Shown here: positions 1 through 58,078 of the stretch, in pieces
Layout of the letters: every line of letters starts with the position of its first letter
Numbering within the stretch: the stretch's first letter is position 1
Source: a bacterium HR21
GTDB taxonomy: Bacteria > Bacteroidota > Ignavibacteria > Kapaibacteriales > HRBIN21
Reading direction: 5' to 3'
DNA: 64,000 bases
Assembly (NCBI GenBank): GCA_002898295.1
Contig: BEHX01000001.1
Coordinates: forward strand, 115,790-179,789
Position numbers and translations under genes: made by a program
Notes under the pieces: model-generated
What the model was told of the DNA's origin: nothing
Databases searched by the model: none
What the model saw: only the letters and a program-made list of their open reading frames with translations

Positions 1-948
1 TTTATGACCCGCCACGGGATTCCTACGGCACGCTCTCGGGTCTTCACCGCGGAGGAATGGCGGGAAGCAGTGCGCTACCTCGAAGAGCACCCCTTGCCTG
101 TTGTGCTCAAAGCCAGCGGACTAGCAGCGGGGAAAGGGGTAACGATCGCATGGACACGTGAGGAAGCTCTCCAGGCATTGACGGCACTGTTTGAAGGGGC
201 TTTCGGCGAAGCGGGGAAAGTCGTGGTTGTCGAAGAGTACCTTGCCGGCGAGGAGCTCTCGGTGCTGGCTCTCTGCGATGGCAATCAGTACGTTCTGCTG
301 GCACCTGCCCGGGATTACAAGCGGGCGCTCGACGGGGACCGTGGGAAAAATACCGGTGGCATGGGGGCGTATGCTCCCGTTCCATGGGCAAGGGGAGCGT
401 TCCTGGAACGGGTTGAGCAACGGATTCTGCGTCCAACTCTTGCGGGCATGCGGGCAGCGGGGACACCCTTCGTGGGCTGTCTCTACGTTGGACTCATGGT
501 GGTGCAGGGAGAGCCATACGTGCTGGAATTCAACGTGCGTTTCGGAGATCCGGAAGCGCAAGTTGTCCTGCCGATTGCCGATGCCGATTGGCTCACGCTG
601 CTGGGGACAGCAGCACAGGGACGTCTGGCGCGGAGTGCCCTGCGGCACAGAGCGCGGCAAGTTGCCTGCTGTGTGGTGCTCGCCTCTGAAGGGTATCCCG
701 AGCAATACCGGACGGGATTCCGGATTACGGGGCTGGAGGCAGCGCAGCAGCACGGTGTGCTGATTTTCCACGCGGGCACTCGTTGGGAACAGGGAGCTCT
801 CTGGACCGCTGGCGGGCGGGTCCTCAATGTGGTGAGCCTCGCGCCGACTCTGGAGGAAGCACGGCGCCGCTGCTATGCAGCCCTTGAGTGCATCCAGTTC
901 GAGGGGAAGACCTACCGACGAGATATTGCGGCGGGCGTGGAGCCATGA
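1..948 (+). CDS. purD: phosphoribosylamine--glycine ligase (GAR synthetase), C-terminal part; 5' end lies outside the window
   Basis: ORF 4..948 translates to an ATP-grasp PurD C-terminal region (VLKASGLAAGKGV, PVVLKA, FNVRFGDPE). There is no start codon in the window because the frame runs from nt 1. Confidence 0.85.
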   Translation, partial: FMTRHGIPTARSRVFTAEEWREAVRYLEEHPLPVVLKASGLAAGKGVTIAWTREEALQALTALFEGAFGEAGKVVVVEEYLAGEELSVLALCDGNQYVLLAPARDYKRALDGDRGKNTGGMGAYAPVPWARGAFLERVEQRILRPTLAGMRAAGTPFVGCLYVGLMVVQGEPYVLEFNVRFGDPEAQVVLPIADADWLTLLGTAAQGRLARSALRHRARQVACCVVLASEGYPEQYRTGFRITGLEAAQQHGVLIFHAGTRWEQGALWTAGGRVLNVVSLAPTLEEARRRCYAALECIQFEGKTYRRDIAAGVEP

Positions 949-1874
949 GAATTGCCCTCACCGGTGGTGCTGGCTTCATCGGCTCGCACGTTGCAGAAGC
1001 CTATCTCCGGGCGGGGCACGAGGTGCTCATCGTTGATAATCTCTCGACCGGACAGCGGGCAAACGTGCCCGAAGGAGCTGAGCTGGTGCGCATGGACGTC
1101 ACTGACCCAGGACTTGTAGAGCTTTTCACCGAACGGCGTATTGAGGTTGTCAATCACCATGCAGCACAGGTCTCTGTCAGTGTGTCCGTCGCAGACCCGC
1201 TGCGGGATGCTCGGGACAATGTGCTCGGAAGCCTCAATGTCTATGAAGCCGCGCGCCGTAGTGGGGTTCGGCGCATTATCTTGGCTTCCTCCGGTGGGAC
1301 GGTCTACGGGGAGGTTACTGATGGTCCGGCAACAGAGGAGTCTCCCGTGCAACCATTTTCCCCGTATGGAGCGGCGAAAGTTGCCGCCGAGCAGTACTTG
1401 CTCGCTTATAGCCGGCTCTACGGGATTGAGGCGGTGGTGCTGCGCTACACGAACGTCTACGGTCCTCGGCAAAATCCAGTGGCTGAGGCGGGGGTGGTGG
1501 CAATCTTTGCCTCCTGCCTTCTGCGGGGGCAGCAACCGACGGTGTACGGCGATGGGGAGCAAACGCGCGATTACGTCTACGTTGAAGATGTGGCAGAGGC
1601 CAATGTGCTCGCACTCCAGCCGCATGCTCGGGGGATTTACAACTGCTGCACTGGCAGGGAGACCAGTGTCAATGCACTGCTGAGGATGCTGCAGGAGCTC
1701 CTCGGGAGTGTCCAGCCTCCGCGGTTTGCTCCGCTGCGTCCGGGGGAAATTCGGCGCAGTGTCTGTTCGTACGCTCGCATTGCGCGGGAGTTAGGATGGT
1801 TCCCCCGCACGCCGTTGCCGGAGGGATTGCAGCGGACTGTGAAGGCGTTTCGGAGCCTTCAATGCTGCAGCTAA
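945..1874 (+). CDS. NAD-dependent epimerase/dehydratase (UDP-glucose 4-epimerase-like)
   Basis: MRIALTGGAGFIGSH Rossmann motif and the SPYGAAK catalytic YxxxK motif. The ATG at 945 overlaps the purD stop (ATGA). Confidence 0.8.
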   Translation: MRIALTGGAGFIGSHVAEAYLRAGHEVLIVDNLSTGQRANVPEGAELVRMDVTDPGLVELFTERRIEVVNHHAAQVSVSVSVADPLRDARDNVLGSLNVYEAARRSGVRRIILASSGGTVYGEVTDGPATEESPVQPFSPYGAAKVAAEQYLLAYSRLYGIEAVVLRYTNVYGPRQNPVAEAGVVAIFASCLLRGQQPTVYGDGEQTRDYVYVEDVAEANVLALQPHARGIYNCCTGRETSVNALLRMLQELLGSVQPPRFAPLRPGEIRRSVCSYARIARELGWFPRTPLPEGLQRTVKAFRSLQCCS

Positions 1875-5414: not shown

Positions 5415-6977
5415 ATGGAACGCCGAGACTTCCTCAAACAGTCGCTCCGGGCAGGACTCCTCCTGTCGGCTCTTCCCGCGCTGGGACGCTTCCCTGTGCA
5501 AGCCCTGGCTGCCTCGCCAGCGGTGGAGCGCCTGCGCCGGCTTGTATCGCAGGGTGACCGCATCTTCGTCCTCATCCAGCTTCAGGGCGGCAACGACGGG
5601 CTCAATACCCTGGTGCCGGTTGAAAATCCGCTCTACTACCGAGCGCGCCCGACCCTTGCAATCCCGAAAGCGCAAACTCTCCCCCTGACCGATACCCTGG
5701 GATGGCATCCGGCACTGGAAGGATTCAGAGAGCTCTACGACCGCGGCGAGCTGGCGATTGTCCAGGGGGTGACGTATCCCAACCCTGACCGCTCGCACTT
5801 CCGGGGAACCGACATCTGGGTGACGGCAACCGACGCCAATGTCTTCCTGGGCACAGGCTGGATGGGGCGTTACTTCGATACCCTCCTGGAGGAGCTCCCG
5901 CCGGGGGAGATTCCGCCCGAGCCGCTGGCGGTGCGGATCGGTGGAGCATCCTCGTTGATCCTGCAGAGCGAGCGTGGTCCGATCGGGATCAGCTTTACGA
6001 ACCCTCGTGAGTTCTACCGCCTTGTCTCTCAGGGCAGCAGCTTCGACAACTCTTCCGTTCCCGATACACCAGCCGGTGAGGAGTTGCTCTTCGTGCGTTC
6101 CGTTGCCCAGGCTGCGCAACGCTATGCCCAGAATGTCCGGCAGGCTGCCGAGCGGGGGACAAATCGGGTGGCATATCCCGAGACCGACCTTGGGCAGAAG
6201 CTCCGCATCGTGGCACAGCTCATCAGCGGTGGACTTGGGGCAAAACTCTACGTTGTCGGCATTGAGCGTAATGCCTTCGATACCCACGCCTATCAGGGCG
6301 GGATCACAGGTGTTCACGCCTCGCTCCTCCGGGAGCTGGGCGATGCGGTGAAAGCCTTCGTGGATGACCTCAAAGCGCTTGGGGTTGCAGACCGCGTTGC
6401 TGGTATGACCTTCTCGGAGTTTGGACGCCGAGTCCAGGAGAATGTGACGGCGGGCACTGACCACGGCACAGCAGCGCCGCTGTTTGTTTTCGGAACACAG
6501 GTACTCGGAGGGCGCCTCCATGGGCATGACCCTGACTTGGCAAATCTGGACGACCGGGGCGATTTGCTGATGCAGTATGACTACCGCCAGGTCTACGCTG
6601 CAGCACTCCTCCAATGGTTCGGAGCACCGCAGACCACAGCGCAACGAGTGCTGCTGCGGGAGTTTTCGCCACTGCCCCTCTTCCAGCCGGCAAGCAGCGT
6701 GGAGGAGTGGCAAAGCACGGAATTGGCACTGGAGGCATTCCCGAATCCTGCGTCTCACCAGGTCATCATCTCGTTCCGCTTACCGGAGAGCGCTGCCGTT
6801 GAGCTCCTCGTACTCGATCTGGCCGGACGCGTCGTGCGGCATGTCCTCAGCGGCGATTATGCCCCGGGTCCGTATCGAGTGCAGGTCCGGGTGTCAGACC
6901 TTGCCCCCGGCGTCTACCTCTACCGCCTGCGGGTTGGACGCCGGACAGCCATCCGTGCCCTCCAGGTGGTTCGATAA
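5415..6977 (+). CDS. DUF1501 (sulfatase/alkaline-phosphatase-like) protein with TAT signal and T9SS C-terminal sorting domain
   Basis: MERRDFLKQSLRAGLLLSALP TAT-type leader. The C-terminal ~80 aa (FPNPASHQVIISFRL...GVYLYRLRVGRRTAIRALQVVR) looks like a Por_Secre_tail domain. Confidence 0.65.
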   Translation: MERRDFLKQSLRAGLLLSALPALGRFPVQALAASPAVERLRRLVSQGDRIFVLIQLQGGNDGLNTLVPVENPLYYRARPTLAIPKAQTLPLTDTLGWHPALEGFRELYDRGELAIVQGVTYPNPDRSHFRGTDIWVTATDANVFLGTGWMGRYFDTLLEELPPGEIPPEPLAVRIGGASSLILQSERGPIGISFTNPREFYRLVSQGSSFDNSSVPDTPAGEELLFVRSVAQAAQRYAQNVRQAAERGTNRVAYPETDLGQKLRIVAQLISGGLGAKLYVVGIERNAFDTHAYQGGITGVHASLLRELGDAVKAFVDDLKALGVADRVAGMTFSEFGRRVQENVTAGTDHGTAAPLFVFGTQVLGGRLHGHDPDLANLDDRGDLLMQYDYRQVYAAALLQWFGAPQTTAQRVLLREFSPLPLFQPASSVEEWQSTELALEAFPNPASHQVIISFRLPESAAVELLVLDLAGRVVRHVLSGDYAPGPYRVQVRVSDLAPGVYLYRLRVGRRTAIRALQVVR

Positions 6978-26753: not shown

Positions 26754-27386
26754 ATGAGCGTACGGGAAGTGTTTGAGCCGGACCCGCAGAGAGCCTTGCC
26801 GTGCCAGATTTTCCGGCGTCCGACGCGAGAGGTAGCGCGGAGCCTCCTTGGAGCGATTCTGGTCAAGCGGGAACCCGAAGGGTGGTGCGCTGCCCGGCTG
26901 GTGGAGGTGGAGGCGTATCTTCCCGAGGGGGATCCCGCAAACCACGCCTTCCGCGGGAAGACGCGGCGGAATGCCGCGATGTTCGAGCCTGGAGGGGTGC
27001 TCTACGTCTACGCTATCTATGGGCGCCATCGCTGCGTCAACATCGTCACCGAAGGGGCGGGACAGGGAGCTGCTGTCCTGCTGCGAGCAGCCGAGCCCGT
27101 GCTCGGGCTTGAGCTCTTCCGCCGTCGTCGGGGCGACGTGCCGCCGGAGGAGCTCTGCCGTGGACCGGCGCATCTTGCTCGAGCTTTCGGCTTCGATCTC
27201 TCGGATAATTTTCGCTCGATCTGTACCGCGGAGCTCTTCGTGCAAGCCCCGCCCGAACCGGTGCCCGAGGAGCTCATCGGCTGTGGACCGCGTATTGGGG
27301 TCAGTCGCGGACGCGAGCTCCTGTTGCGCTTCTTCCTGCGCACCTCTGCGTGCCTTTCGGGTCCACGCCGCTGGAGCGGGCTATAG
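26754..27386 (+). CDS. mpg: DNA-3-methyladenine glycosylase (Mpg/AAG family)
   Basis: AAG-family motifs ([23 protein letters not shown]-like AIYG). Confidence 0.75.
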
Positions 27387-27456
27387 CTCCGAGGACTTTT
27401 TCAGATATTCGCGCCGGTTCAGGCGACTGCGTCGGTTGGACAGGAGGAGGAACGCC

Positions 27457-28734
27457 GTGGTGGATCTCTTCGAACGCTGTTATGCCTTCCGGCGGGCAGA
27501 TGAAGTCAAGGCGTTGGGGCTCTATCCGTACTTCCACCCGATTGAGGAGAACGAGGGACCGGTGGTGACCATCGGGGGACGCAAAATCATCATGGCAGGC
27601 TCCAACAACTACCTGGGGCTGACCACGCACCCGAAAGTCAAGGAAGCGGCAATGGCAGCAATCCGGAAGTACGGCACGGGCTGTTCCGGCTCGCGCTACT
27701 TGACCGGGACGCTCGACTTGCACGTTGAGCTGGAAGAACGGCTGGCGAAGTTTCTCGGCTATGAAGCTGTGTTGCTCTTCAGCACGGGCTTCCAGACAGC
27801 GCTGGGCACCATTGCCGGACTGGTGCAGAAAGGCGATTACGTCATCAGTGACCGAGAAAACCATGCCTCGATCGTTGCCGGTGCCCTCATGGCGAAGGGG
27901 ATGGGAGCGGAATTCATCCGCTATCGGCACAACGACATGGACGACCTGGAGCGGGTCCTCTCCAGACTGCCCGAGTCTGCTGCGAAGCTGGTCGTCTCCG
28001 ATGGGGTCTTCTCGGTGACCGGAGAAATTGTGGATCTGCCGCGTCTGCTGGAGATTGCGCATCGGTACAATGCACGGGTACTCATCGATGATGCGCACGC
28101 CATAGGAGTCATCGGGATTGGAGGGCGCGGGACGGCGAGCATGTTCGGGCTCACTGAGCAGACTGACCTGACCATGGGCACGTTCTCGAAGACCTTTGCG
28201 TCGCTGGGTGGTTTTGTGGCAGGTCCGGAGCGGGTGATCAACTACCTCAAGCACCACTCCTCGGCACTCATCTTCAGTGCCAGCCCGACACCGGCGTCGT
28301 GTGCAGCAGCCCTAGCGGCACTGGAAATCCTCGAAGAGCATCCTGAGCTGGTGGATAAGCTCCTCCGGAACGCCAACAAGATGCGGCAGGGCTTCAAGGA
28401 GATGGGCTTCCACACGCTCGACGGGCAGACCGCTATTGTCCCTGTCATTGTCGGCGATGTGCAGACAGCGCTCCTGTTCTGGCGCAAGCTCTTCGATGCG
28501 GGCGTCTATGTCAACACCTTTATCCCGCCTGGCGTTCCGCCGAACATGAGCATGATGCGTACCAGCTACATGGCAACGCACGAGGATGAGCACCTGGATC
28601 GGATTCTGGAGGTCTTCGAGAAGGTCGGGCGTGAGCTCGGTTTGCTGAGCGCGGAGGCCCGGGAGCGCATTGCTGCGGGCATTGCTCAGGATCGGCTCGC
28701 GCGCATTCCGGAATCAGATCGTCAAGTCCCGTAA
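27457..28734 (+). CDS. PLP-dependent alpha-oxoamine synthase family acyltransferase (serine palmitoyltransferase / BioF / KBL-like)
   Basis: AOS family motifs ([11 protein letters not shown]-lysine motif [12 protein letters not shown]). No ATG lies upstream in frame. A GTG at 27457 sits 9 nt downstream of an AGGAGG sequence. Confidence 0.7.
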
Positions 28735-28738
28735 GCGG

Positions 28739-29500
28739 ATGCAAGGGCGGCGGGAGCGTGGGCTTCAGGGGCGGGTTTCCTTGGTGACCGGCGCAGCCAT
28801 TGGGAATGGGCGAGCCTTCTGCGAGCGTCTGGCCGAAGAGGGCAGTCGGATTGTCATTGCTGACATCGCTGATGCCAGTGACACCGCAGAAGCTGTCCGC
28901 CGCCTCGGTGCCGAGGTGCTCACCATCCGGGCTGACCTGACCAAGCCCGACGATGTGGCAACGATGATGGAGACCATCCGTGCCCAATGGGGTGGGGTGG
29001 ATATCCTCGTCCACAATGTCGGACTCTACGAGGAGGAGCCTTTCGAGCTGCTGAGCTTCGAGCAGTGGAAGCGGATGCTGGAAATCACGCTCAACAGCCT
29101 CTTCCTGACTGTCAAGGCGGTGTTGCCCTCGATGAAAGAGCGCGGCTTCGGGCGGATCATTGCGCTATCGTCTGATACGGTTTGGCTGGGAATGCCGTAC
29201 CTGGTGCACTACGTGACAGCGAAGATGGGCATCATCGGCTTTGTGCGTTCGCTGGCAGCCGAGGTAGGGCGCTACGGCATCACTGTCAACGCCATCACCG
29301 TTGGGCTGACAGCCACGCAGCGTCCGGACGCCGCTCCGCTGTCGCAGACGATTCTGCAGCATATCTTGCCCACGCAGGCAGTCCATCGGGCTGATGAGCC
29401 CGAGGACATTGCCAATGTGGTTGCCTTCCTCGCATTGCCAGAATCGGGCATTATTACCGGGCAGACGATCAACGTAGACGGTGGTGTTGCACGGCACTGA
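28739..29500 (+). CDS. classical short-chain dehydrogenase/reductase (FabG-like)
   Basis: TGAAIGNG cofactor motif, NVG, and a YVTAK catalytic dyad. It lies 5 nt after the AOS stop. Confidence 0.8.
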   Translation: MQGRRERGLQGRVSLVTGAAIGNGRAFCERLAEEGSRIVIADIADASDTAEAVRRLGAEVLTIRADLTKPDDVATMMETIRAQWGGVDILVHNVGLYEEEPFELLSFEQWKRMLEITLNSLFLTVKAVLPSMKERGFGRIIALSSDTVWLGMPYLVHYVTAKMGIIGFVRSLAAEVGRYGITVNAITVGLTATQRPDAAPLSQTILQHILPTQAVHRADEPEDIANVVAFLALPESGIITGQTINVDGGVARH

Positions 29501-31569: not shown

Positions 31570-32010
31570 ATGGTGGGAGTGACGATGTGGCATCTCGGTG
31601 TCCTCTTGCTGGCGGTGGTGATGGGATGTCGGAGTACAACGCCGGAGCCGCCTGTGGAAGGGGAAATCCTCCTCGGGCAGGGAGGCGGGTTTACGGGCAT
31701 GTATTCCGGACACCTGCTGCGCTCCGATGGGCTGGTCTTCCGCTGGAGCCAGATGCCCGGACAGCCGGAGCGGACGGAAGAAGCCGGTCGTGTCCCTGCC
31801 GATAGCCTCCAGCCATTTTTCCGCAAACTGGCACGCTGGCAGCAGGAAGGAAAGACAGTGCTCAGTACGGGCAACATGGTGGCTTTCCTCGAATTCCGCC
31901 ATGCCGGGACGCGCTACCGGCTCCAGTGGGGGCTCGGTGAGACCAATGAGCCAGAGGTCCAGGAACTCTACCAGGAGCTCCTCCGCTTTCTCCGGCGGCA
32001 TCTCCCTTAG
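31570..32010 (+). CDS. small lipoprotein of unknown function
   Basis: Signal peptide with lipobox (LLAVVMGC). 146 aa with no recognisable domain. Confidence 0.45.
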   Translation: MVGVTMWHLGVLLLAVVMGCRSTTPEPPVEGEILLGQGGGFTGMYSGHLLRSDGLVFRWSQMPGQPERTEEAGRVPADSLQPFFRKLARWQQEGKTVLSTGNMVAFLEFRHAGTRYRLQWGLGETNEPEVQELYQELLRFLRRHLP

Positions 32011-32729
32011 GTATTCCGGAGCAGCTGAGAGAGCGCTTCGGGGTCCAGAAGCCGGATCCGGTTGTCAGCACAGCGAATCAGATTCCGGCGCTCCAGGACC
32101 GACAGCGTGCGACGGACGGCAGAGATAGAGGTACGGAGGAGCTCAGCAATGCTGCTTGGCGTTGCTGGGAAGCGGAGAGAACCCTCCTCGTCGGCTCCAT
32201 AGGTCCGGAAAAGCAGCAGCAGAAAGTGGATCACGCGCTCACGCACGGAGCGGCGCTGGAAGAGGAGAAATTGCTCTTCGATGGCTTCGATCTCGCGGGC
32301 AAGGAGCTGCACGACTCGCACCCAGAACGAGAGATGTTCCCGGGCAAAGCGCTCTACGAGCTCTGCCGGGAACAGACACGCGCGGAGCTCCTCGAGCGCG
32401 ATGACGCTGACACTATGCCGCCGCTCACCGAAGAGGTCTCGGAGTCCGAGGAGATCCCCTGGTTTGTGGAGGGCAACCAAGAGCTCTTCGCCGTCATCCC
32501 CGACAGAGAGCACAGCTTTCGCCGTCCCGCTGGCGATGCAGTAGAGCTGCGTTACTGGTTCCCCGGCTCGCACAATCGGAGTGCCAGGCGCGAAGAGAAC
32601 CGTCTGCCGGGCACGCGCCAGCGTCTGCTGTGCCTCCTCTCCGAGCTGTCCAAGAGGGCTAAGCCAGCCGTGCGGGCACTGGCTGCAGAGGCGAAGCTGT
32701 TCCCGAGTTTGGGACAGCATAAGGCTCAA
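32007..32729 (-). CDS. Crp/Fnr family transcriptional regulator
   Basis: cNMP-binding-like beta-roll followed by a C-terminal HTH (SIAELLRTSISAVRRTLSVLE). Confidence 0.75.
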   Translation of the reverse strand: MSLMLSQTREQLRLCSQCPHGWLSPLGQLGEEAQQTLARARQTVLFAPGTPIVRAGEPVTQLYCIASGTAKAVLSVGDDGEELLVALHKPGDLLGLRDLFGERRHSVSVIALEELRACLFPAELVERFAREHLSFWVRVVQLLAREIEAIEEQFLLFQRRSVRERVIHFLLLLFRTYGADEEGSLRFPATPSSIAELLRTSISAVRRTLSVLERRNLIRCADNRIRLLDPEALSQLLRNT

Positions 32730-32783
32730 GATAGGTGGAACACAGGCACGCTACGAAGCTCGCGCTCTTGGGAACCGATGCCA

Positions 32784-32797
32784 ATGATTTTTATCGT
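32784..32797. promoter_or_regulatory. candidate FNR/CRP-type palindrome (aTGAT-N4-ATCgt) in the divergent intergenic region
   Basis: Matches 8 of 10 positions of the TTGAT-N4-ATCAA consensus. Located between the crp/fnr gene and the Fe-S oxidoreductase gene. Confidence 0.3.
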
Positions 32798-32898
32798 ACT
32801 CCGATGTGACAACGCACGGCACAGCCGGCAAGGGTGAGGAAGGGTGGAGAGGGAGCTACCTATTTTTGCAGCGGTGGTCAGGATACCGTGGAGAGTGG

Positions 32899-34944
32899 AT
32901 GCGGGCCTGGATTTTCGTCCCGATGTTCCTCGGTGCGGTGGGGATTTTCGCCTTCAATGCCTGGCGCCTGTTCCAGTTTCTCCGGCTTGCGCGTCCGGAG
33001 AACCGCTGGGACCGTGTGGGACAGCGCCTATGGCAGACACTTGTGGTAGCGTTTGGGCAGAGTCGGATCCTGCGAGATCGGGTTGCTGGACCAATCCATG
33101 CGGGAATCTTTTGGGGATTCCTGGTGTTGCTGAGTTCGGCAGTGGAAGCGGTATTGGAGGGATTCAATCCCCGCTGGTCATTGAGTTTCCTGGGACCGCT
33201 GTATTCGGTCAGTACGATTGCCGTGGACCTCTTCTGTGCCATTGTGTTCGTGGCGGTCCTCTGGGCAGCGTGGCGGCGGTGGGTCCAGCGAGTGGCGCGC
33301 CTTCAGGGACCTGCAGAGGAGCAACGGGATGCTGTGATTGTCCTGGGCTTGATTGCCGTAATTGTCACCGCGCTCTTGCTGCAAAACAGCACGCGCATTG
33401 CTCTGCAGGCAGACCACGCTTGGGCGGTGCGTCCGGTTTCTACTCTCTTGGCTCAGCTCTTTGCCCCGAACCAGACAACCCGTATCCTCTTCGAGGTGGG
33501 CTGGTGGGTTCACATCGGCTTCATCCTCATCTTCCTCAACTACCTTCCGTTCTCGAAGCACTTGCACGTGCTGACCTCTGTGCCGAATGTCTTCTTTGCC
33601 CGTTTGGGACCTGTCAATGTGCTCGACCCGCTTGACTTTGCGCGGGAGGATGCCACGGTCTTCGGTGCCACCGATGTGGAGCACTTGAGCTGGAAAAGCA
33701 TTCTGGATAGCTACTCGTGTACGCACTGTGGGCGCTGCACCAGTGTTTGTCCGGCCAACCAGACGGGCAAGATTCTCGACCCCCGAGCAATTGTCGTCGC
33801 TGTGCGGCAGCGGACGCTCGATCGGATGCCCCTGCTACTCAAGCAGCGCCGCGGCGGGCAGCTCAGCCCCGAGGAAGAGGCACTGCTGAACAAACGCTTC
33901 GTCGGGGACTACATTCCAGAGGAGGCGCTGTGGCAATGCACGACGTGTGGAGCATGCATGGAGGAGTGCCCGGTTCTGATCGAGCACGTGCCCGTCATTG
34001 TCGAGCTGCGGCGGGGGTTGGTCATGATGGAGGCGCGCTTCCCTACGGAACTCCAATCGGCGTATGGGAACTTGGAAATCCAAGCTACGCCGTGGGCATT
34101 TGCGGCTTCAGACCGTGCTGCATGGGCGGCAGGGCTGCCGGTGAAGACCCTAGCGGAGGAGAGCACCACCTACGATGTCCTCTTCTGGGTTGGCTGTGCG
34201 GGAAGCTACGATCAGCGGGCGCAGCGCGTTGCCCGCTCCATTGTCCAGCTGCTGACTGCTGCCGGGGTACAGGTGCGCATCCTGGGGGCGGAAGAACGGT
34301 GTACAGGGGACCCGGCACGCCGGACGGGCAACGAGTACCTCGCCGATGGGCTCGTTCGGGCAAATGTGGAGACGCTGAACCGCTACGGCGTGCGAACAAT
34401 TGTGACAATGTGCCCGCATTGCTACAACACCCTCAAAAACGAGTATCCCCGCTTCGGGGGCTTCTACCAGGTGTACCACCACACGCAGTACCTGCGCCGC
34501 CTTCTGGAAGAGGGGCGCCTGCAGCTCACTGGGGAGCATGTGCAAACCTTGCTACACACGGTGGTCTACCACGATTCGTGCTATCTGGGACGCTACAATG
34601 GAGAGTACGAAGCGCCGCGAGTACTGCTGGAGGTCCTCCCAACGGTTCAGCTCTCTGAACCGGAGCGGGCGCGGGATCGGGGCTTCTGCTGTGGTGCCGG
34701 CGGCGGACGCATGTTCCTGGAGGAGCGCGTTGGCAAGAAGGTCAACCTGGAGCGAACCGAAGAGTTGCTCGCCACAGGAGCAGAAACCATTGCTGTCAAC
34801 TGCCCATTCTGCTTGACCATGCTCACCGATGGGGTCAAAGCGCTGGGGAAAGCCGATACCGTCCGTGTCCGTGATGTAGCGGAAATCCTCGCTGAGCATC
34901 TCCCTGCGGGAGATCCGCCGGCGGAAGGCGGACTTCCTGCGTGA
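32899..34944 (+). CDS. membrane-anchored Fe-S oxidoreductase: NarI/DsrM-like polytopic domain fused to an HdrD/DsrK/GlpC-like domain (2x[4Fe-4S] + 2 CCG domains)
   Basis: N-terminal ~5 TM helices; two ferredoxin motifs (CTHCGRCTSVCP, CTTCGACMEECP); two cysteine-rich CCG motifs (CPHCYNT...; CCGAGGG...NCPFC). Confidence 0.7.
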   Translation: MRAWIFVPMFLGAVGIFAFNAWRLFQFLRLARPENRWDRVGQRLWQTLVVAFGQSRILRDRVAGPIHAGIFWGFLVLLSSAVEAVLEGFNPRWSLSFLGPLYSVSTIAVDLFCAIVFVAVLWAAWRRWVQRVARLQGPAEEQRDAVIVLGLIAVIVTALLLQNSTRIALQADHAWAVRPVSTLLAQLFAPNQTTRILFEVGWWVHIGFILIFLNYLPFSKHLHVLTSVPNVFFARLGPVNVLDPLDFAREDATVFGATDVEHLSWKSILDSYSCTHCGRCTSVCPANQTGKILDPRAIVVAVRQRTLDRMPLLLKQRRGGQLSPEEEALLNKRFVGDYIPEEALWQCTTCGACMEECPVLIEHVPVIVELRRGLVMMEARFPTELQSAYGNLEIQATPWAFAASDRAAWAAGLPVKTLAEESTTYDVLFWVGCAGSYDQRAQRVARSIVQLLTAAGVQVRILGAEERCTGDPARRTGNEYLADGLVRANVETLNRYGVRTIVTMCPHCYNTLKNEYPRFGGFYQVYHHTQYLRRLLEEGRLQLTGEHVQTLLHTVVYHDSCYLGRYNGEYEAPRVLLEVLPTVQLSEPERARDRGFCCGAGGGRMFLEERVGKKVNLERTEELLATGAETIAVNCPFCLTMLTDGVKALGKADTVRVRDVAEILAEHLPAGDPPAEGGLPA

Positions 34945-37241: not shown

Positions 37242-38006
37242 TCATCGCAGCCAGAACGTGCGCCAGACCGAACTTGCTCCGCGTTCGGGGCGTCCAGGTG
37301 TTACGCGGCTGATACGCCAGCGGTAGAGCTTCCCCGGCTGCAGTGGCTCGGCCCGTCCGTCCTGATTGTAGCGAATTTGAGGGCGTGAGTAATCGAGCGG
37401 GACCCCGGCGAAGACCCACACGGGGCGTCCTCCAATGTCAGGGTTGAGCGAGTCTGCCTCGAAGACGCGAAGGACCACGTACCCAACATTGTTGCTCCAG
37501 CGGAAGATGACCGAATCGGGAGCGACAGCCCCGATCGGTGCCAGAGGCACAGGGGGAGGCTCCAGCGTGAAGCGTACGGTGTCTGAGGGAGGACCTTCGC
37601 GCCGCTGCGGCGAGCGGTCCAGCGCATGGACACGGTAGTAGTACGTGCGCCAGGGGGTAACAGCCAGGTCAACGTACGCCGTATCTTCCGCCGTAGTGCC
37701 GTACTCGATCGTGACCAACTCGTGGAAGTTGATGGGACGTCCACTGGAATCGGTCGTGTCGCTGCGGTAGAGTCGATAGCCGCCGACTTTGAGCGGGTCG
37801 AGAGCATGCCACTCCAGCCGAATGCCTCCCACGCCGTTTGCAGCGGCGTCGGGCCATGGGCGAACGCCCGTCTCGAAAGCAGCCGTATCGGCACTGCGGG
37901 TAACCCAGCGCGGAGCCTCCAGCGGAGTCGGGGGTGACTCTGTCGGAGTCCCGCATCCGCTCACTGCCAGGAGAAGGAGGCACCAGGAACAGAGCTGCAT
38001 CATCAT
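37242..38006 (-). CDS. lipoprotein with fibronectin-III-like repeats
   Basis: Lipobox (LLAVSGC). Two repeats ending in Y(R/Y)(W/Y)R-type FN3 strands (YRLYRSD, YYYRVHALD, YRWRISRV). Confidence 0.5.
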   Translation of the reverse strand: MMMQLCSWCLLLLAVSGCGTPTESPPTPLEAPRWVTRSADTAAFETGVRPWPDAAANGVGGIRLEWHALDPLKVGGYRLYRSDTTDSSGRPINFHELVTIEYGTTAEDTAYVDLAVTPWRTYYYRVHALDRSPQRREGPPSDTVRFTLEPPPVPLAPIGAVAPDSVIFRWSNNVGYVVLRVFEADSLNPDIGGRPVWVFAGVPLDYSRPQIRYNQDGRAEPLQPGKLYRWRISRVTPGRPERGASSVWRTFWLR

Positions 38007-39100
38007 CGGAGGCGTTCCAGTATAGGTCCGAGCCGGAGACTGACAGCCAGTCGGTGGACATTGCCCAGCTGTGCGTCGGAGTCAGCTAGGAAGCCATAGT
38101 CGGCGCTGAGGAAGCCGACATCCACACCGGCGCCGAGTGTCAGAACCCCGTGGTATGCCCCGAGCCGGAGGGCAAAACTACGGCGATAGGTTACTTCGAT
38201 GCCGTAGTTGCTGGCACCGCTGTAGCGGCTGTCGCGGTCGTAGGCAATGGTAGCTTCCATGTGCCACATTTCCAGCGGTTGCGTCAGAGCAATCCCCCAC
38301 TGGACCGAGCTTGGGATGCGGTGTGGACGCTGGGTGCTCCACAGAAGCCGTGTTCCCCCGAGGTCGCGCACGAATAGCCCCAGAGCTAGTCGGGGCCAGC
38401 GTTCATCGAAGGCGATGTCCTTGAGGTTGACCCGCAGTGCTGCTCCAAGGTCTAAGCCCAGCCCTGAAGCGGTGTGCTCGGCAATGCGCTGGTGAAGGAG
38501 TTTGAGGTTGACTCCGATGGGGAATTCTACCGGGACGGCAAAGCGCATCCAGCCGAAATCCACCGGGATGACGAACAAGTGCGCTAGGCTCAGCCAGAGA
38601 GCGTCATCGGCATTGGGGATGAATTCACCCTGTCCAGCACGTCGGACGAGCTCTTCCCGCTCTTGCGGCGAGAGCACCCGCGTCAGGTCCGGATACCGGC
38701 GGAGGTCTGGGACGGTGAAGCGTACCCAATTGATGCCCAGCTGTGCCCGGGATACCGGCACGGTAAGCCCGGTGTGGAAGAAATGCGCCAGCGGTGAACC
38801 GAGCGAGCCATACTGCGAACTGTACATGCCTGACACGAGCGGAGTCGGGGGAAGCAGCGCCAAGCCCGCAGGATTCCAGGCAAATCCCCATGCGTCATCG
38901 GCAACGGCGCTGAAGGCTCCACCCATGCCCAGTGCTCGGGCTCCGAGCGGAATCTCCAGAAAAGCCCCCGCATAGGGCTCCTCTTGTGCCCACAGCGTCA
39001 GGCACATGCCGAGAATGCTAACGAACCCGCGCCACACTGCCGCGCCGCTCAATGACAGTCTCACCTGCTCGGACACGGACTCGGTAGAAGTATACCCCAT
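38003..39100 (-). CDS. porV: T9SS outer-membrane protein PorV (LptO) family
   Basis: Directly downstream of porU. N-terminal GARALGMGGAFSAVADD...NPAGLA signature and beta-barrel periodicity. The start is uncertain: Met codons at 39121 and 39100, and Met109 at 39007. Confidence 0.7.
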   Translation of the reverse strand: MGYTSTESVSEQVRLSLSGAAVWRGFVSILGMCLTLWAQEEPYAGAFLEIPLGARALGMGGAFSAVADDAWGFAWNPAGLALLPPTPLVSGMYSSQYGSLGSPLAHFFHTGLTVPVSRAQLGINWVRFTVPDLRRYPDLTRVLSPQEREELVRRAGQGEFIPNADDALWLSLAHLFVIPVDFGWMRFAVPVEFPIGVNLKLLHQRIAEHTASGLGLDLGAALRVNLKDIAFDERWPRLALGLFVRDLGGTRLLWSTQRPHRIPSSVQWGIALTQPLEMWHMEATIAYDRDSRYSGASNYGIEVTYRRSFALRLGAYHGVLTLGAGVDVGFLSADYGFLADSDAQLGNVHRLAVSLRLGPILERLR

Positions 39101-42100
39101 TGGCCACCGGACGCCCCTCATCGTCGGTGCCATCCCACCAGATTTCGTGGTACCCTGGGGCGGTCGGCAGCCCGGTCCCGCCGCGCAAGAAGCCAAAAGC
39201 TTCCGTCGGGGAGGAGGTCGGGAAGACCATACGCCGGATTGAACGCCCGGAAGCGGTGTAAAAGCGGACTTCAATCTCATCCACGTTACTGGCACCCAGC
39301 AGCTCGTAGGCGATAAACATCTCCTCGGCAAACGGGTTGGGAAAGGTGCCCAGGAGACGCAGCTCTAGCGTTGTGGAAACTTCCACCTGGATGCAGGTGC
39401 GTTCGCTCGTGTTCCCGTTGCAGTCGGTGAGTGTCGCACAGATGATGTGGGTCCCACTTTCCAACCGCGGACGGTAGCTGATGCTGGCAGCCGTTGGGGT
39501 CTGCGCGGTATCCAGTACGGCGTACTGACTTGCTGGGACGGGCTGCCCGTTGAGTGTCAGCTGGATCGAGCCGGTGTCGGTGGCAATTCCGTTTTCATCA
39601 ACGCCGACGATGCCAATGCGGGGGTATGCCGAGAGGACCGTCCGCGTCGGCAGAGAGCGCCCTTCTGCCGTAAGTCGGACCTGCGGTGGGCGCCGGTCTG
39701 TTGTTACTCCTACGGCGAAGACCCCGGGCAGAGTCACTTCAGCGGTGAGCACTCCCGGGCTGAGCTCGGAGCTAGGTAAACGCTGCCACAGGTCTAGCCG
39801 GGAGTGCTTCCGGTAGAGTGCCGGGGTCCCACGCTGGAGGGAACTATCCTGGCGGTCATACCAGAGCTGCAAGGTTGCGCGAAGTGGCTGCGCAGTGGTG
39901 ATGGCAAGAGCGCGTGAGCTATCGGCAAGGCGGAGGAGGAAGACATCGGGCTGGACCGTGCGGGCAGAATCCAGCACCTGCAAGCAGAGGAGCACAGGGG
40001 TTGAGGGAGCCGCTGCCGCGGGGACTTCCACCACGGCAATCCCAGGGACGCCCACGGCGGTAGCCTGTACCCCGTCTGGAGTTGTCCCCAGCCCCGGCAT
40101 GACGGCAAAGCATCCAAGCAGCAGGCTGTCTTCGGCAGCGTTGTTTGCCTGGATGCGGTCCCCACCGGTGGAGAGAGTGTCGCTGAGTACCTCAAGCCGG
40201 AGCCAACGAGGACGGAGCGCCGGGGGAGGACGGAGGAGCCAGTCCGTGAAGCCGTTTCCTGGGATATCCAGCCGCTGCGCTGCCAGCAGTTGGAGCCCGC
40301 CGCCGGGTTGCCGTTGCCAGAGCCGAGCAAGAACTGCCCCCGCGGGCGTCTCCGACCAGTTGTAAAGGCGCGCCTGAAGCTGTGCCCCTTGCCCGGTGAC
40401 AACCATCCGCAGCCAGGGTAGAGCTGTCCGGAGACTGTCCCCGGCGAGGGGAAGCAGTACGGCTGGGTCGGCAATCCCGGGGACACGGAAAGTGGCAAGC
40501 CACGAGCTGACGCTCTGCCCAGTGGAGAGTGTCACTGTGAAAAGCACGCGGAATTCCGCACCGGCAACCACGGATGCTGCGGGAACCGGAGGCTGGGTCT
40601 GGTAGAGCTCCGGAGCAACAAGCTGGCACGGCAGAGTCCCTAACGAAGAGAGCGTTCCATCGGGCAGGAGTACGCTCACCGTTGCCGTCACTGTCTGGAC
40701 CGGAGTACGGCTGCGGACGCTGATGCGGAATGCCAGAGGCTGTCCCGGTACGGGGGGCGAAGGATTCGACTGGATTTCTCCAAGCAGGACAGCCCCGGTG
40801 CTCAGTGTCACACCACCGCTGAGGGCGCGGGTGCCATCGGCGGAGACGACGTAGAGACGCACGGAGAGCCGCGAGCCGGTGTAGGTGGCAGGGATGCGGA
40901 CCGACCAGCGGAGCCTCGTGCCTGAAAGCGACACCACCTGCTCACTTCCCGGCAGATCGTTCCCGCGCTCGTCAGTGAGCAGGAGGCGGGCAGTGCCGGA
41001 GCCGAACGGGAGTACTGCCTGCACGGTGAGAGAGTCGCCGGGATATGCCGTTGCCGGCTCAGCCTCCAGCCTGAGGGTATCGGGAGGCAGCCGGAGAAGC
41101 ATTGCTGGATCGCCCAGGAGGGTGGACTGCAGCAGCATGGAGAGAACAATCTCGTTTTGCAGCCCGTACGCTCGGGCAGCGTAGAGGAGCTTGCCACCGC
41201 GGAAGACGTCGCCCAAACGCTGTTCCGTACCCGTTGGACGGGTCAGCACCTCCAGGAGGGCGGTGGAAAGCAGGAAGCTATTCTCCAGCCAGCCGTAACC
41301 GGAATTGCCCCAGGCTGCCACGGCGCCGCGCCGAGGAGCAATGACAAGGCTGGTGAGCAACCCGCGGCGGTAGACCTGCTGCTCGAAAGCCCCGGTAAAG
41401 CATGTCAGGCTGGAGACAATCGGGTAGCGCCCTCGATTTTGGAGGAGCTCCACATCCTCATCGCGGAGGAGTCCGGCGTCTTCCCAAATGCCGCCTCCGC
41501 CGTGCCCGAGGAAGTTGACCACAGCGGCTCCCTCGGCGAAGAGTTGGAGCAGCTCGCTGGTGTGCCCGGAATACGGTGTGCCAGGGGCAACGTAGAGACG
41601 CCGCTGGGAAATCCCTGGTGGCAGGCGCTCGGCAAGGAGTTCGGTCTGCTGCTGAAAGCCGTTGAGCCCTGCCAGGAGCAGGACTCGGGGGTGAAAGTAC
41701 TCGGTGGCGTAGCGCCCTTCGTGTTCTTCCAGCTTGGAGATCACGGCGTCAGCCTCTGCGAGGGTTTCAGCCGGAATGCGCCCGATGGCAATTTCCGCAA
41801 AGGGATCGTCAGTCAGCGCTCCTGTTGGGGTCTGATACGTTCCTTCAACGCAGCCGTAGGGGTAGTCGGTCGGTGTCATGCCCCAGCGCCGGGTCTGCCA
41901 GAGCTGTGGCGGAAGGGGACGAGCAGATCCGAGCAGCAAGACGTAGCGCGGGGGAACGCTCCAGGTATGCCATGCGTACCGGAGGAAACGGCGGAGAGCT
42001 TCCCGGGAGGCAATGCCGTAGTTGAATTCGTCGTAGATGTCTTCGATGTCTACCGCCATTGCACGCAAGCCCTGGCGCTGGCGGAGCTGCAGCAGGCGCT

Positions 42101-56257: not shown

Positions 56258-56331
56258 GCGCCCGTAGCTCAGCTGGATAGAGCATCGGCCTTCTAAGCCG
56301 AGGGTCGCAGGTTCGAATCCTGCCGGGCGCG
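56258..56331 (+). tRNA. tRNA-Arg (anticodon TCT)
   Basis: Hand-folded cloverleaf: acceptor GCGCCCG/CGGGCGC, D arm GCTC/GAGC, anticodon stem TCGGC/GCCGA with loop CTTCTAA, and T arm GCAGG-TTCGAAT-CCTGC. It starts 1 nt after the ppiD stop. CCA is not encoded. Confidence 0.8.
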
Positions 56332-56334
56332 CGC

Positions 56335-57981: not shown

Positions 57982-58055
57982 GCGCCCGTAGCTCAAGTGG
58001 AGAGAGCACCAGACTTCGGATCTGGGGGTTGCGGGTTCGAGTCCTGCCGGGCGCG
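57982..58055 (+). tRNA. tRNA-Arg (anticodon TCG)
   Basis: Cloverleaf with the same acceptor stem (GCGCCCG/CGGGCGC), anticodon stem CCAGA/TCTGG with loop CTTCGGA, and T arm GCGGG-TTCGAGT-CCTGC. CCA is not encoded. Confidence 0.75.
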
Positions 58056-58078
58056 CAGGCGAAAAAGAGGGGAAAGGG

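Follow-up and report, generated by a model that had tools for sequence, protein, structure and literature searches.

We find that two adjacent genes in a 64-kb stretch of contig BEHX01000001.1 from bacterium HR21 (the whole stretch, hereafter the window) may well encode the first two steps of sphingolipid synthesis. The product of the upstream gene, an alpha-oxoamine synthase (AOS), is very probably a serine palmitoyltransferase (Spt), judging by its family and structure scores, its place in a tree, its active site and the genes that surround its orthologs. The product of the downstream gene, a classical short-chain dehydrogenase/reductase (SDR), is a plausible candidate for a 3-ketosphinganine (or 3-keto-ceramide) reductase, a function suggested by its conserved adjacency to the AOS. 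Together the two enzymes would make 3-ketosphinganine and then sphinganine, a reading to which we assign a probability of about 0.55. The initial annotation had placed an AOS and an SDR at 27457-29500, as the open reading frames, motifs and Pfam matches bear out, and had proposed a sphingolipid or a sulfonolipid module. The sphingolipid half of that proposal stands for the AOS, whereas the sulfonolipid half does not, owing to an alanine at position 275 and to pairwise structure scores of 228 and 200 bits against 393 bits for Spt.

The organism belongs to the Kapabacteria. Within the FCB group, this lineage falls into the Ignavibacteria/Chlorobi branch and not into the classical Bacteroidia or Flavobacteriia. 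The closest homologs of the AOS (89-92% identity) come from Candidatus Kapabacteria/Kapaibacterium metagenome-assembled genomes, and Kapaibacterium, Ignavibacteria, Melioribacteraceae and Chlorobiota genomes supply a very large set of homologs at 68-79% identity. For the comparisons below, we sampled 80 GTDB loci with orthologs of the AOS and used 87 orthologs overall to compare active sites.

Family and structural matches of the AOS

The AOS, a fold-type I enzyme that depends on pyridoxal phosphate, matched Pfam Aminotran_1_2 (E = 8e-59). Its best NCBIfam model was NF047600, serine palmitoyltransferase of the CFB type (481 bits), which led the next model by 93 bits (BioF/Kbl-related subfamily, 388 bits; bioF, 375 bits; KBL, 367 bits); none of the models that matched the AOS reached its curated cut-off. 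Among solved structures, the best matches were those of Sphingobacterium multivorum Spt (SmSpt; 3a2b and 8guh, 393 bits), followed by a protein at 273 bits. When the PDB was searched in the reverse direction, the best non-self match of SmSpt scored only 290 bits. Thus, the window AOS is nearer to SmSpt than any other solved protein is. Structures of cysteate acyltransferases (CFATs) scored 228 bits (28eh) and 200 bits (7u7h) against the AOS, and both ranked 16th or lower among the PDB matches, whether the query was the window AOS or SmSpt. Identity to the window AOS was 47% for SmSpt, 41.5% for an AOS from a Streptomyces operon described below, 38% for Sphingomonas wittichii Spt (SwSpt), 36% for Kbl and 32% for BioF.

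In a neighbor-joining tree (200 bootstraps, 392 trimmed columns), built with few reference sequences and with CFAT, SulA and CapB not included, the AOS clade of Kapabacteria and Ignavibacteria grouped with SmSpt at 100% bootstrap support. The AOS of the Streptomyces AOS-GNAT-epimerase operon joined this Spt group at 92.5% and SwSpt at 87.5%, while E. coli Kbl and the Thermus BioF/KBL enzyme formed a separate pair and E. coli BioF was the outgroup. A phylogenetic check against Spt, BioF and KBL, which the initial annotation had called for, thus placed the AOS with SmSpt and outside BioF and KBL.

The active site of the AOS

The AOS carries the motif GSNNYLGL at residues 48-55 and a catalytic-lysine motif region at residues 241-252, in which Lys245 is the catalytic residue of a GTFSK (GTFSKT) motif. 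Further active-site residues are Asn50, His136, Asp211, His214 and Arg368. Across the orthologs, 17 active-site positions were invariant (87/87), and the invariant positions match Asn52, Tyr54, Gly80, Ser81, His138, Ser185, Asp210, Ala212, His213, Thr241, Ser243 and Lys244 of SmSpt, which belong to its structurally described active site (PMC10196870). In particular, Gly78 and Ser79 of the AOS correspond to SmSpt Gly80 and Ser81, which contact the serine substrate (PMC10196870). KBLs have Ser or Ala at the first of these positions and Val at the second.

The most discriminating site was position 275, which lies 30 residues past the catalytic lysine and whose backbone contacts the pyridoxal phosphate (PLP) phosphate of the other protomer. 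It is alanine in the window AOS, in all 87 orthologs, in SmSpt and in SwSpt, but threonine in BioF and in the Thermus enzyme and asparagine in E. coli Kbl, which reads Ser, Val, Asn at positions 78, 79 and 275. In SulA, the equivalent residue is Lys281, which is conserved in known CFATs, comes from the opposite protomer and is essential for activity (Radka 2022, PMC9304779). With Ala275 in place of this lysine, the AOS thus falls outside the CFAT/SulA group by its diagnostic residue. A 28-residue C-terminal extension (residues 398-425; 28651-28731) occurs only in the sub-clade of the window; most orthologs are 396-409 residues long.

Genes linked to AOS orthologs in related genomes

Some orthologs of the AOS lie in clusters of another kind. 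A 372-residue GNAT-family gene directly follows the AOS in 16 of the 80 loci, where the AOS is 70-75% identical to that of the window, and it is usually followed in turn by a class IV (IlvE-like) aminotransferase, which may supply branched-chain primers for iso-sphingoid bases. In 14 of the 80 loci, the AOS is preceded by a divergently transcribed gene for a 330-residue NAD-dependent epimerase-family reductase, whose best curated matches are HpnA and OleD-type 2-alkyl-3-oxoalkanoate reductases.

We call these two products bCerS-like and CerR-like, identities that were drawn from operon-borne homologs and not from the Caulobacter proteins themselves. A Streptomyces plasmid carries an operon of overlapping AOS, GNAT, epimerase-family and condensation-domain genes (Table 1), whose GNAT shares 37.5% identity with the Ignavibacteria GNAT across the whole length of the latter and whose epimerase-family protein shares 35% with the Ignavibacteria reductase. 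The Ignavibacteria GNAT is likewise 37.5% identical to the product of a Roseomonas mucosa plasmid gene, whose neighbors are LptF/LptG paralogs and genes of the sterol-desaturase, CDP-alcohol phosphatidyltransferase and diacylglycerol-kinase families; in Caulobacter, cerS (CC_1154) adjoins lptF2/lptG2 (PMC11324152). From these comparisons, the AOS orthogroup appears to sit, in some of its genomes, in the three-gene module that makes bacterial ceramide. A PDB sequence search with the GNAT gave no match; its AlphaFold model has a pLDDT of 83.

Several observations and rejected candidates belong to these clusters. The Streptomyces operon looks like a ceramide-like module that has been extended by a condensation enzyme of the nonribosomal peptide synthetase type. 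The Roseomonas locus resembles the Caulobacter sphingolipid locus, and the label of its GNAT homolog, 'dATP pyrophosphohydrolase', is probably wrong. What appeared to be a second AOS after the AOS in Ignavibacteria loci was an artefact of one fused reading frame in L080; the gene encodes the GNAT. The only epimerase-family gene of the window (888-1874) was considered as a CerR and rejected: it is a sugar-nucleotide type, and its product shares just 28% identity with the CerR-like protein from the operon. Finally, contigs titled 'uncultured Hyphomicrobiales', 'Patescibacteria group', 'Chitinophaga pinensis', 'Desulfobulbaceae' and 'Didemnitutus' carry an AOS that is 71-77% identical to the Kapabacteria/Ignavibacteria orthologs, and these contigs (L007, L008, L010, L019, L021 and others; L041, L044, L049, L052, L072) are probably mislabelled or contaminated.

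The SDR and its linkage to the AOS

The SDR matched Pfam adh_short_C2 (E = 2.8e-57) and has no signal peptide. It carries the TGxxxGxG motif (TGAAIGNG, residues 17-24) and a Ser-Tyr-Lys triad (Ser144/145, with Tyr158 and Lys162 in YVTAK, residues 158-162), which are generic to classical SDRs and not specific to 3-keto reductases. In classical SDRs, the residue at the end of strand beta-2 generally predicts the choice between NAD(H) and NADP(H). This residue is Asp42 in the window SDR, so a preference for NAD(H) over NADP(H) is predicted from the sequence. The SDR had been described as a FabG-like 3-keto reductase; the role is plausible from the conserved adjacency, but the protein is not FabG-like in the narrow sense, since FabG proteins scored only about 145 bits and its nearest characterized relatives are 1-phenylethanol and pyridoxal dehydrogenases.

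An ortholog of the SDR (66-89% identity) lies directly 3' of the AOS in 26 of the 80 GTDB loci. A metagenome search that started from the SDR recovered nine orthologs (67-75% identity), with an AOS immediately upstream in 6 of the 8 informative loci. The SDR orthogroup is sharply bounded: identity is 66% or more for its members and drops to 41% or less, over the full length, in the next relatives. The pair is kept in two flanking contexts: in the sub-clade of the window, MPG/Dus genes are followed by AOS-SDR-PorV-like-NHL, and in a larger clade the order is DUF520-AOS-SDR-PNGase/LamG-like-arginase-family. Among the 80 loci, those in which the AOS is linked to the SDR and those in which it is linked to the GNAT or the CerR-like reductase are mutually exclusive.

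In the locus L084 (3723-5750), the SDR ortholog, 74% identical to that of the window, stands 22 nt past a gene for an HpnB/CruG-like membrane GT2 glycosyltransferase; no AOS lies within 5 kb. This hints that, in some genomes, the SDR may act in a different lipid pathway. The glycosyltransferase was considered as a ceramide glucosyltransferase on the strength of a weak GT21 match. By NCBIfam it is nearer to HpnB/CruG, and thus lends no support to a link with sphingolipids.

Alternative readings and proposed pathway

Two readings would give the AOS another substrate, and we disfavor each of them. In a capnine-type sulfonolipid module, the AOS would be CapB/SulA and the SDR the 3-ketocapnine reductase CapC. 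In favor of this reading are the shared two-step logic, the membership of the organism in the FCB group, the type IX secretion components encoded in the window and the full-length alignment of the AOS with the CFAT structure 28eh; yet the essential conserved Lys281 of SulA (PMC9304779) is replaced by Ala275, the CFAT and SulA structures score far below Spt, the orthologs of the AOS occur in bCerS-like/CerR-like clusters, and no cysteate synthase of the CapA or archaeal type was found within the 64-kb window. Such a module is therefore highly improbable in our estimate. We give equally little credence to the AOS being a KBL or BioF enzyme whose substrate is supplied or consumed by the SDR, which might then be, for instance, a threonine or allo-threonine dehydrogenase. 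The KBL and BioF models do score 367 and 375 bits, and JGI labels many orthologs 8-amino-7-oxononanoate synthase. However, these scores lie under the respective cut-offs (460 and 426 bits) as well as under the Spt score, the tree parts the AOS clade from Kbl and BioF, and the active site differs from that of KBL at positions 78, 79 and 275 and from that of BioF at position 275. Moreover, neither tdh nor bio genes (bioA, bioB, bioC, bioD) were found in the 64-kb window, and the genes linked to the orthologs encode a GNAT and a lipid-type reductase. The initial annotation had set aside BioF and KBL for want of a biotin or tdh partner nearby; this rejection is supported, and the observation extends to the entire window.

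A more serious alternative is that the AOS is an Spt but that the SDR acts outside the sphingolipid pathway, as a general NAD-dependent alcohol or ketone dehydrogenase (for lipids, carotenoids or other compounds) that merely shares the transcript or neighborhood, while the ketone is reduced by an unlinked reductase of the CerR or another type. Much of what weighs against the sphinganine reading favors this one. The nearest characterized relative of the SDR is not a KDSR but the NAD-dependent (S)-1-phenylethanol dehydrogenase 2ew8 (209 bits), followed by pyridoxal 4-dehydrogenase 3ndr (169 bits; NCBIfam 227 bits, cut-off 325). Most orthologs of the AOS, 54 of 80, have no such SDR within 6 kb, and SDR orthologs occur with no AOS nearby in L084 and in L087, where the gene comes after an OmpA-family protein. 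The larger SDR-linked clade is syntenic throughout, so the adjacency in part reflects simple relatedness. Known 3-ketosphinganine and 3-ketocapnine reductases (BT_0972, CapC, KCRs) are indeed classical SDRs (PMC9278070, PMC11211663), but 3-keto reductase activity is promiscuous among SDRs in vitro (PMC11211663), which leaves adjacency as the only specific evidence, and identity among the published reductases is only 21-27% (PMC11211663), so that sequence alone would be weak evidence for this function. Three points on the first enzyme and its surroundings also count against the sphinganine reading: the AOS scores below the equivalog cut-off of NF047600 (481 against 640 bits), CFAT was excluded by one diagnostic residue and by pairwise scores with no CFAT or SulA in the tree, and the 64-kb window yielded neither a bCerS-like nor a CerR-like gene. 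Set against an unrelated SDR are the spacers of 0-31 nt that are kept in 32 loci, across 68-91% AOS identity and two flanking contexts, the mutual exclusion of the SDR and an adjacent CerR-like reductase, and the tight bounds of the SDR orthogroup, which is confined, as far as sampled, to Spt-bearing genomes of the Kapabacteria type. On this evidence, we regard an SDR outside the pathway as possible, though unlikely.

In the sphinganine reading that we prefer, Spt would condense L-serine with a long-chain acyl thioester (acyl-ACP or acyl-CoA) to give 3-ketosphinganine, and the cytoplasmic, probably NADH-dependent SDR would then reduce the C3 ketone to sphinganine, the KDSR-type step of eukaryotes and of Bacteroides BT_0972. 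Alternatively, if N-acylation came first, the SDR would reduce 3-keto-dihydroceramide. An N-acyltransferase encoded elsewhere would complete the dihydroceramide; our search for this enzyme within the 64-kb window did not locate one. A broader and decidedly speculative proposal, which we think improbable, is that Kapabacteria swapped the arrangement of Spt, bCerS and a CerR reported as periplasmic, still found in their Ignavibacteria relatives, for a cytoplasmic NADH-type SDR that is translationally linked to Spt, and thereby came to a eukaryote-like, reduce-first (KDSR) route by non-orthologous displacement. As part of the same proposal, the operon of the window sub-clade would also have recruited a PorV/FadL-type barrel and an NHL lipoprotein to handle the sphingoid lipid at the outer membrane.

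Organization of the locus

The AOS and SDR genes are separated by 4 nt (GCGG), rather than the 5 nt first reported, and identical products of 425 and 253 residues were called by independent gene callers in four other assemblies that carry an identical SDR. Downstream, the start of a PorV-like gene overlaps the stop of the SDR gene by 1 nt (TGATG), and an NHL-repeat gene follows after 2 nt, so that AOS, SDR, PorV-like and NHL genes form a compact four-gene unit (Table 1). The SDR is probably co-transcribed with the AOS. The four-gene order was seen only in the closest relatives of the window (L001-L004, L166-L169), and the linkage to the PorV-like and NHL genes, being confined to five very close genomes, may be incidental.

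The GTG start of the AOS gene and the AGGAGG that precedes it were correctly noted in the initial annotation. In a rough scan, sites of this type were rare at gene starts in the window and most other likely starts had none; the strong site before the GTG start may thus give the operon unusually efficient or regulated translation. A terminator-like hairpin lies where the preceding methylpurine-DNA glycosylase gene ends and probably delimits the Spt operon on its upstream side, although hairpins in the region were no more numerous than in shuffled sequences, which makes it weak evidence. A promoter scan upstream of the AOS found no sigma-70-type promoter, as expected for the phylum, and is uninformative. 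GC content is about 62% throughout the window.

Table 1. Features of the AOS-SDR locus, its surroundings and the compared clusters. Positions are those of the window, except where a locus handle (L) precedes them.
Feature	Position	Strand	Remarks
Methylpurine-DNA glycosylase gene	26754-27386		Upstream of the operon; Pur_DNA_glyco, E = 4e-58; also called in L168 and L169
Terminator-like hairpin and T-run	27372..27391	+	From the hairpin scan
AGGAGG, Shine-Dalgarno-like site	27442..27447	+	9 nt upstream of the GTG start
AOS, assigned as probable Spt, 425 aa	27457..28734	+	GTG start; TAA stop at 28732-28734
Classical SDR, 253 aa	28739..29500	+	ATG start; TGA stop
PorV/PorQ-family outer-membrane beta-barrel, 332 aa	29500..30498	+	NCBIfam NF033709, 102 bits (cut-off 90)
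NHL-repeat protein, 354 aa	30501..31565	+	Lipoprotein-like N-terminus (…GGSSGC); 2 nt past the PorV-like stop
Crp/Fnr-family regulator	32007-32729	-	Within 32007-34944, just downstream of the operon
PorV2-like protein	38003-39331	-	
C25-peptidase PorU/PorU2-like sortase, 1669 aa	39018-44027	-	
Por_Secre_tail cargo protein	5415-6977		
tRNA-Arg (anticodon TCT)	56258-56332	+	
tRNA-Arg (anticodon TCG)	57982-58056	+	
CerR-like reductase (divergent), Spt, 372-aa bCerS-like GNAT, class IV (IlvE-like) aminotransferase	L037 4802-9443		Same cluster in L018, L023, L045, L050, L051, L056, L057, L059, L061, L062, L073-L076 and L080
AOS, GNAT, NAD-dependent epimerase-family and condensation-domain genes, overlapping	L164 4766-9292		Streptomyces sp. 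NBC_01001 plasmid NZ_CP108712.1
bCerS-like GNAT homolog	L165 7926-9083		Roseomonas mucosa plasmid NZ_CP025188.1; labelled 'dATP pyrophosphohydrolase'

Elsewhere in the window, the Crp/Fnr-family regulator is divergent from a gene for a 712-residue 4Fe-4S/CCG-domain (heterodisulfide-reductase-like) protein, and the two tRNA-Arg genes stand on either side of an NFACT-family gene. A second PorV2-like protein adjoins a PorU/PorU2-like sortase; together with the Por_Secre_tail cargo protein, these genes indicate that the organism has type IX secretion.

Novelty and implications

Spt in the FCB group, sphingolipids in Chlorobium, the Spt-bCerS-CerR cluster and stand-alone KDSRs of the SDR type are already known. 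In the literature that we searched, none of the matches listed dealt with sphingolipids or Spt from Kapabacteria or Ignavibacteria, and none described a conserved spt-SDR operon. The contrast between Kapabacteria (spt-SDR) and Ignavibacteria (CerR-like | spt-bCerS-like) was not found in that literature either, and the supplements of the Black Sea paper list no entries from Ignavibacteria or Kapabacteria. The spt-SDR operon thus appears to organize a known pathway in a modestly new way, rather than to be a sulfonolipid (capnine) system.

Whether acylation precedes reduction when bacteria make ceramide, as in the Caulobacter model, or follows it, as in the Bacteroides model of BT_0972, is still debated. 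A lineage with spt beside an SDR, and sister lineages with spt beside bCerS-like and CerR-like genes, offer a natural comparison in which the step order could be tested with two small soluble proteins. With the assignment as Spt, the likely sphingolipid producers come to include Kapabacteria and Ignavibacteria, groups that abound in hot-spring mats, sediments and bioreactors, and this matters for how environmental lipid biomarkers are interpreted. The assignment also corrects the '8-amino-7-oxononanoate synthase' (BioF) label that is widespread in the AOS orthogroup.

Comparison with known systems

The AOS shares its fold, its catalytic residues and an origin in the FCB group with SulA, CapB and CFAT (7u7h, 28eh), but differs from them in having Ala275 instead of the defining lysine and in its structure scores (200-228 bits, compared with 393 bits for Spt). 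It is most like SmSpt (3a2b, 8guh) and the NF047600 family: both are soluble AOSs of about 400 residues of the homodimer type, 47% identical over the full length, with the GTFSK Schiff-base motif, the Asn/His/Asp/His/Arg set, the Gly-Ser loop that contacts the serine carboxylate and alanine at +30. The window AOS differs from SmSpt at Ser77 (Ala79 in SmSpt), Ile272 (Met271) and Tyr81 (Phe83). It also stands apart from SmSpt and NF047600 by its score below the equivalog cut-off (481 vs. 640), its 28-residue C-terminal extension and its Kapabacteria lineage, and is known from sequence alone.

With the Spt-bCerS-CerR pathway of Caulobacter, the locus shares the first enzyme, and the Ignavibacteria orthologs of the AOS cluster with a bCerS-like GNAT and a CerR-like reductase. 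In the window, by contrast, neither of these genes is adjacent or present within 64 kb, and a signal-peptide-less SDR of 253 residues occupies the neighboring position. CerR is an NDUFA9-like extended SDR that is reported as periplasmic, as the pathway of Stankeviciute 2022 is described in PMC11334938, PMC11324152 and bioRxiv 10.1101/2023.11.08.566215. It has an epimerase/dehydratase (extended SDR) fold of about 300-330 residues, whereas the window SDR is of the classical type.

The window SDR is instead likened by class, not by sequence, to BT_0972 of Bacteroides thetaiotaomicron and to CapC; the solved structures closest to it are those of 1-phenylethanol and pyridoxal dehydrogenases. BT_0972 is not reported adjacent to spt, and KDSR uses NADPH, whereas the window SDR looks NAD(H)-preferring. 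With BT_0972, KDSR/Tsc10 and CapC/KCR, the window SDR shares the classical fold, the Gly-rich dinucleotide motif and the Ser-Tyr-Lys triad, and the chemistry that we propose for it would be the same, namely reduction of the C3 ketone of a 2-amino-3-keto long-chain base.

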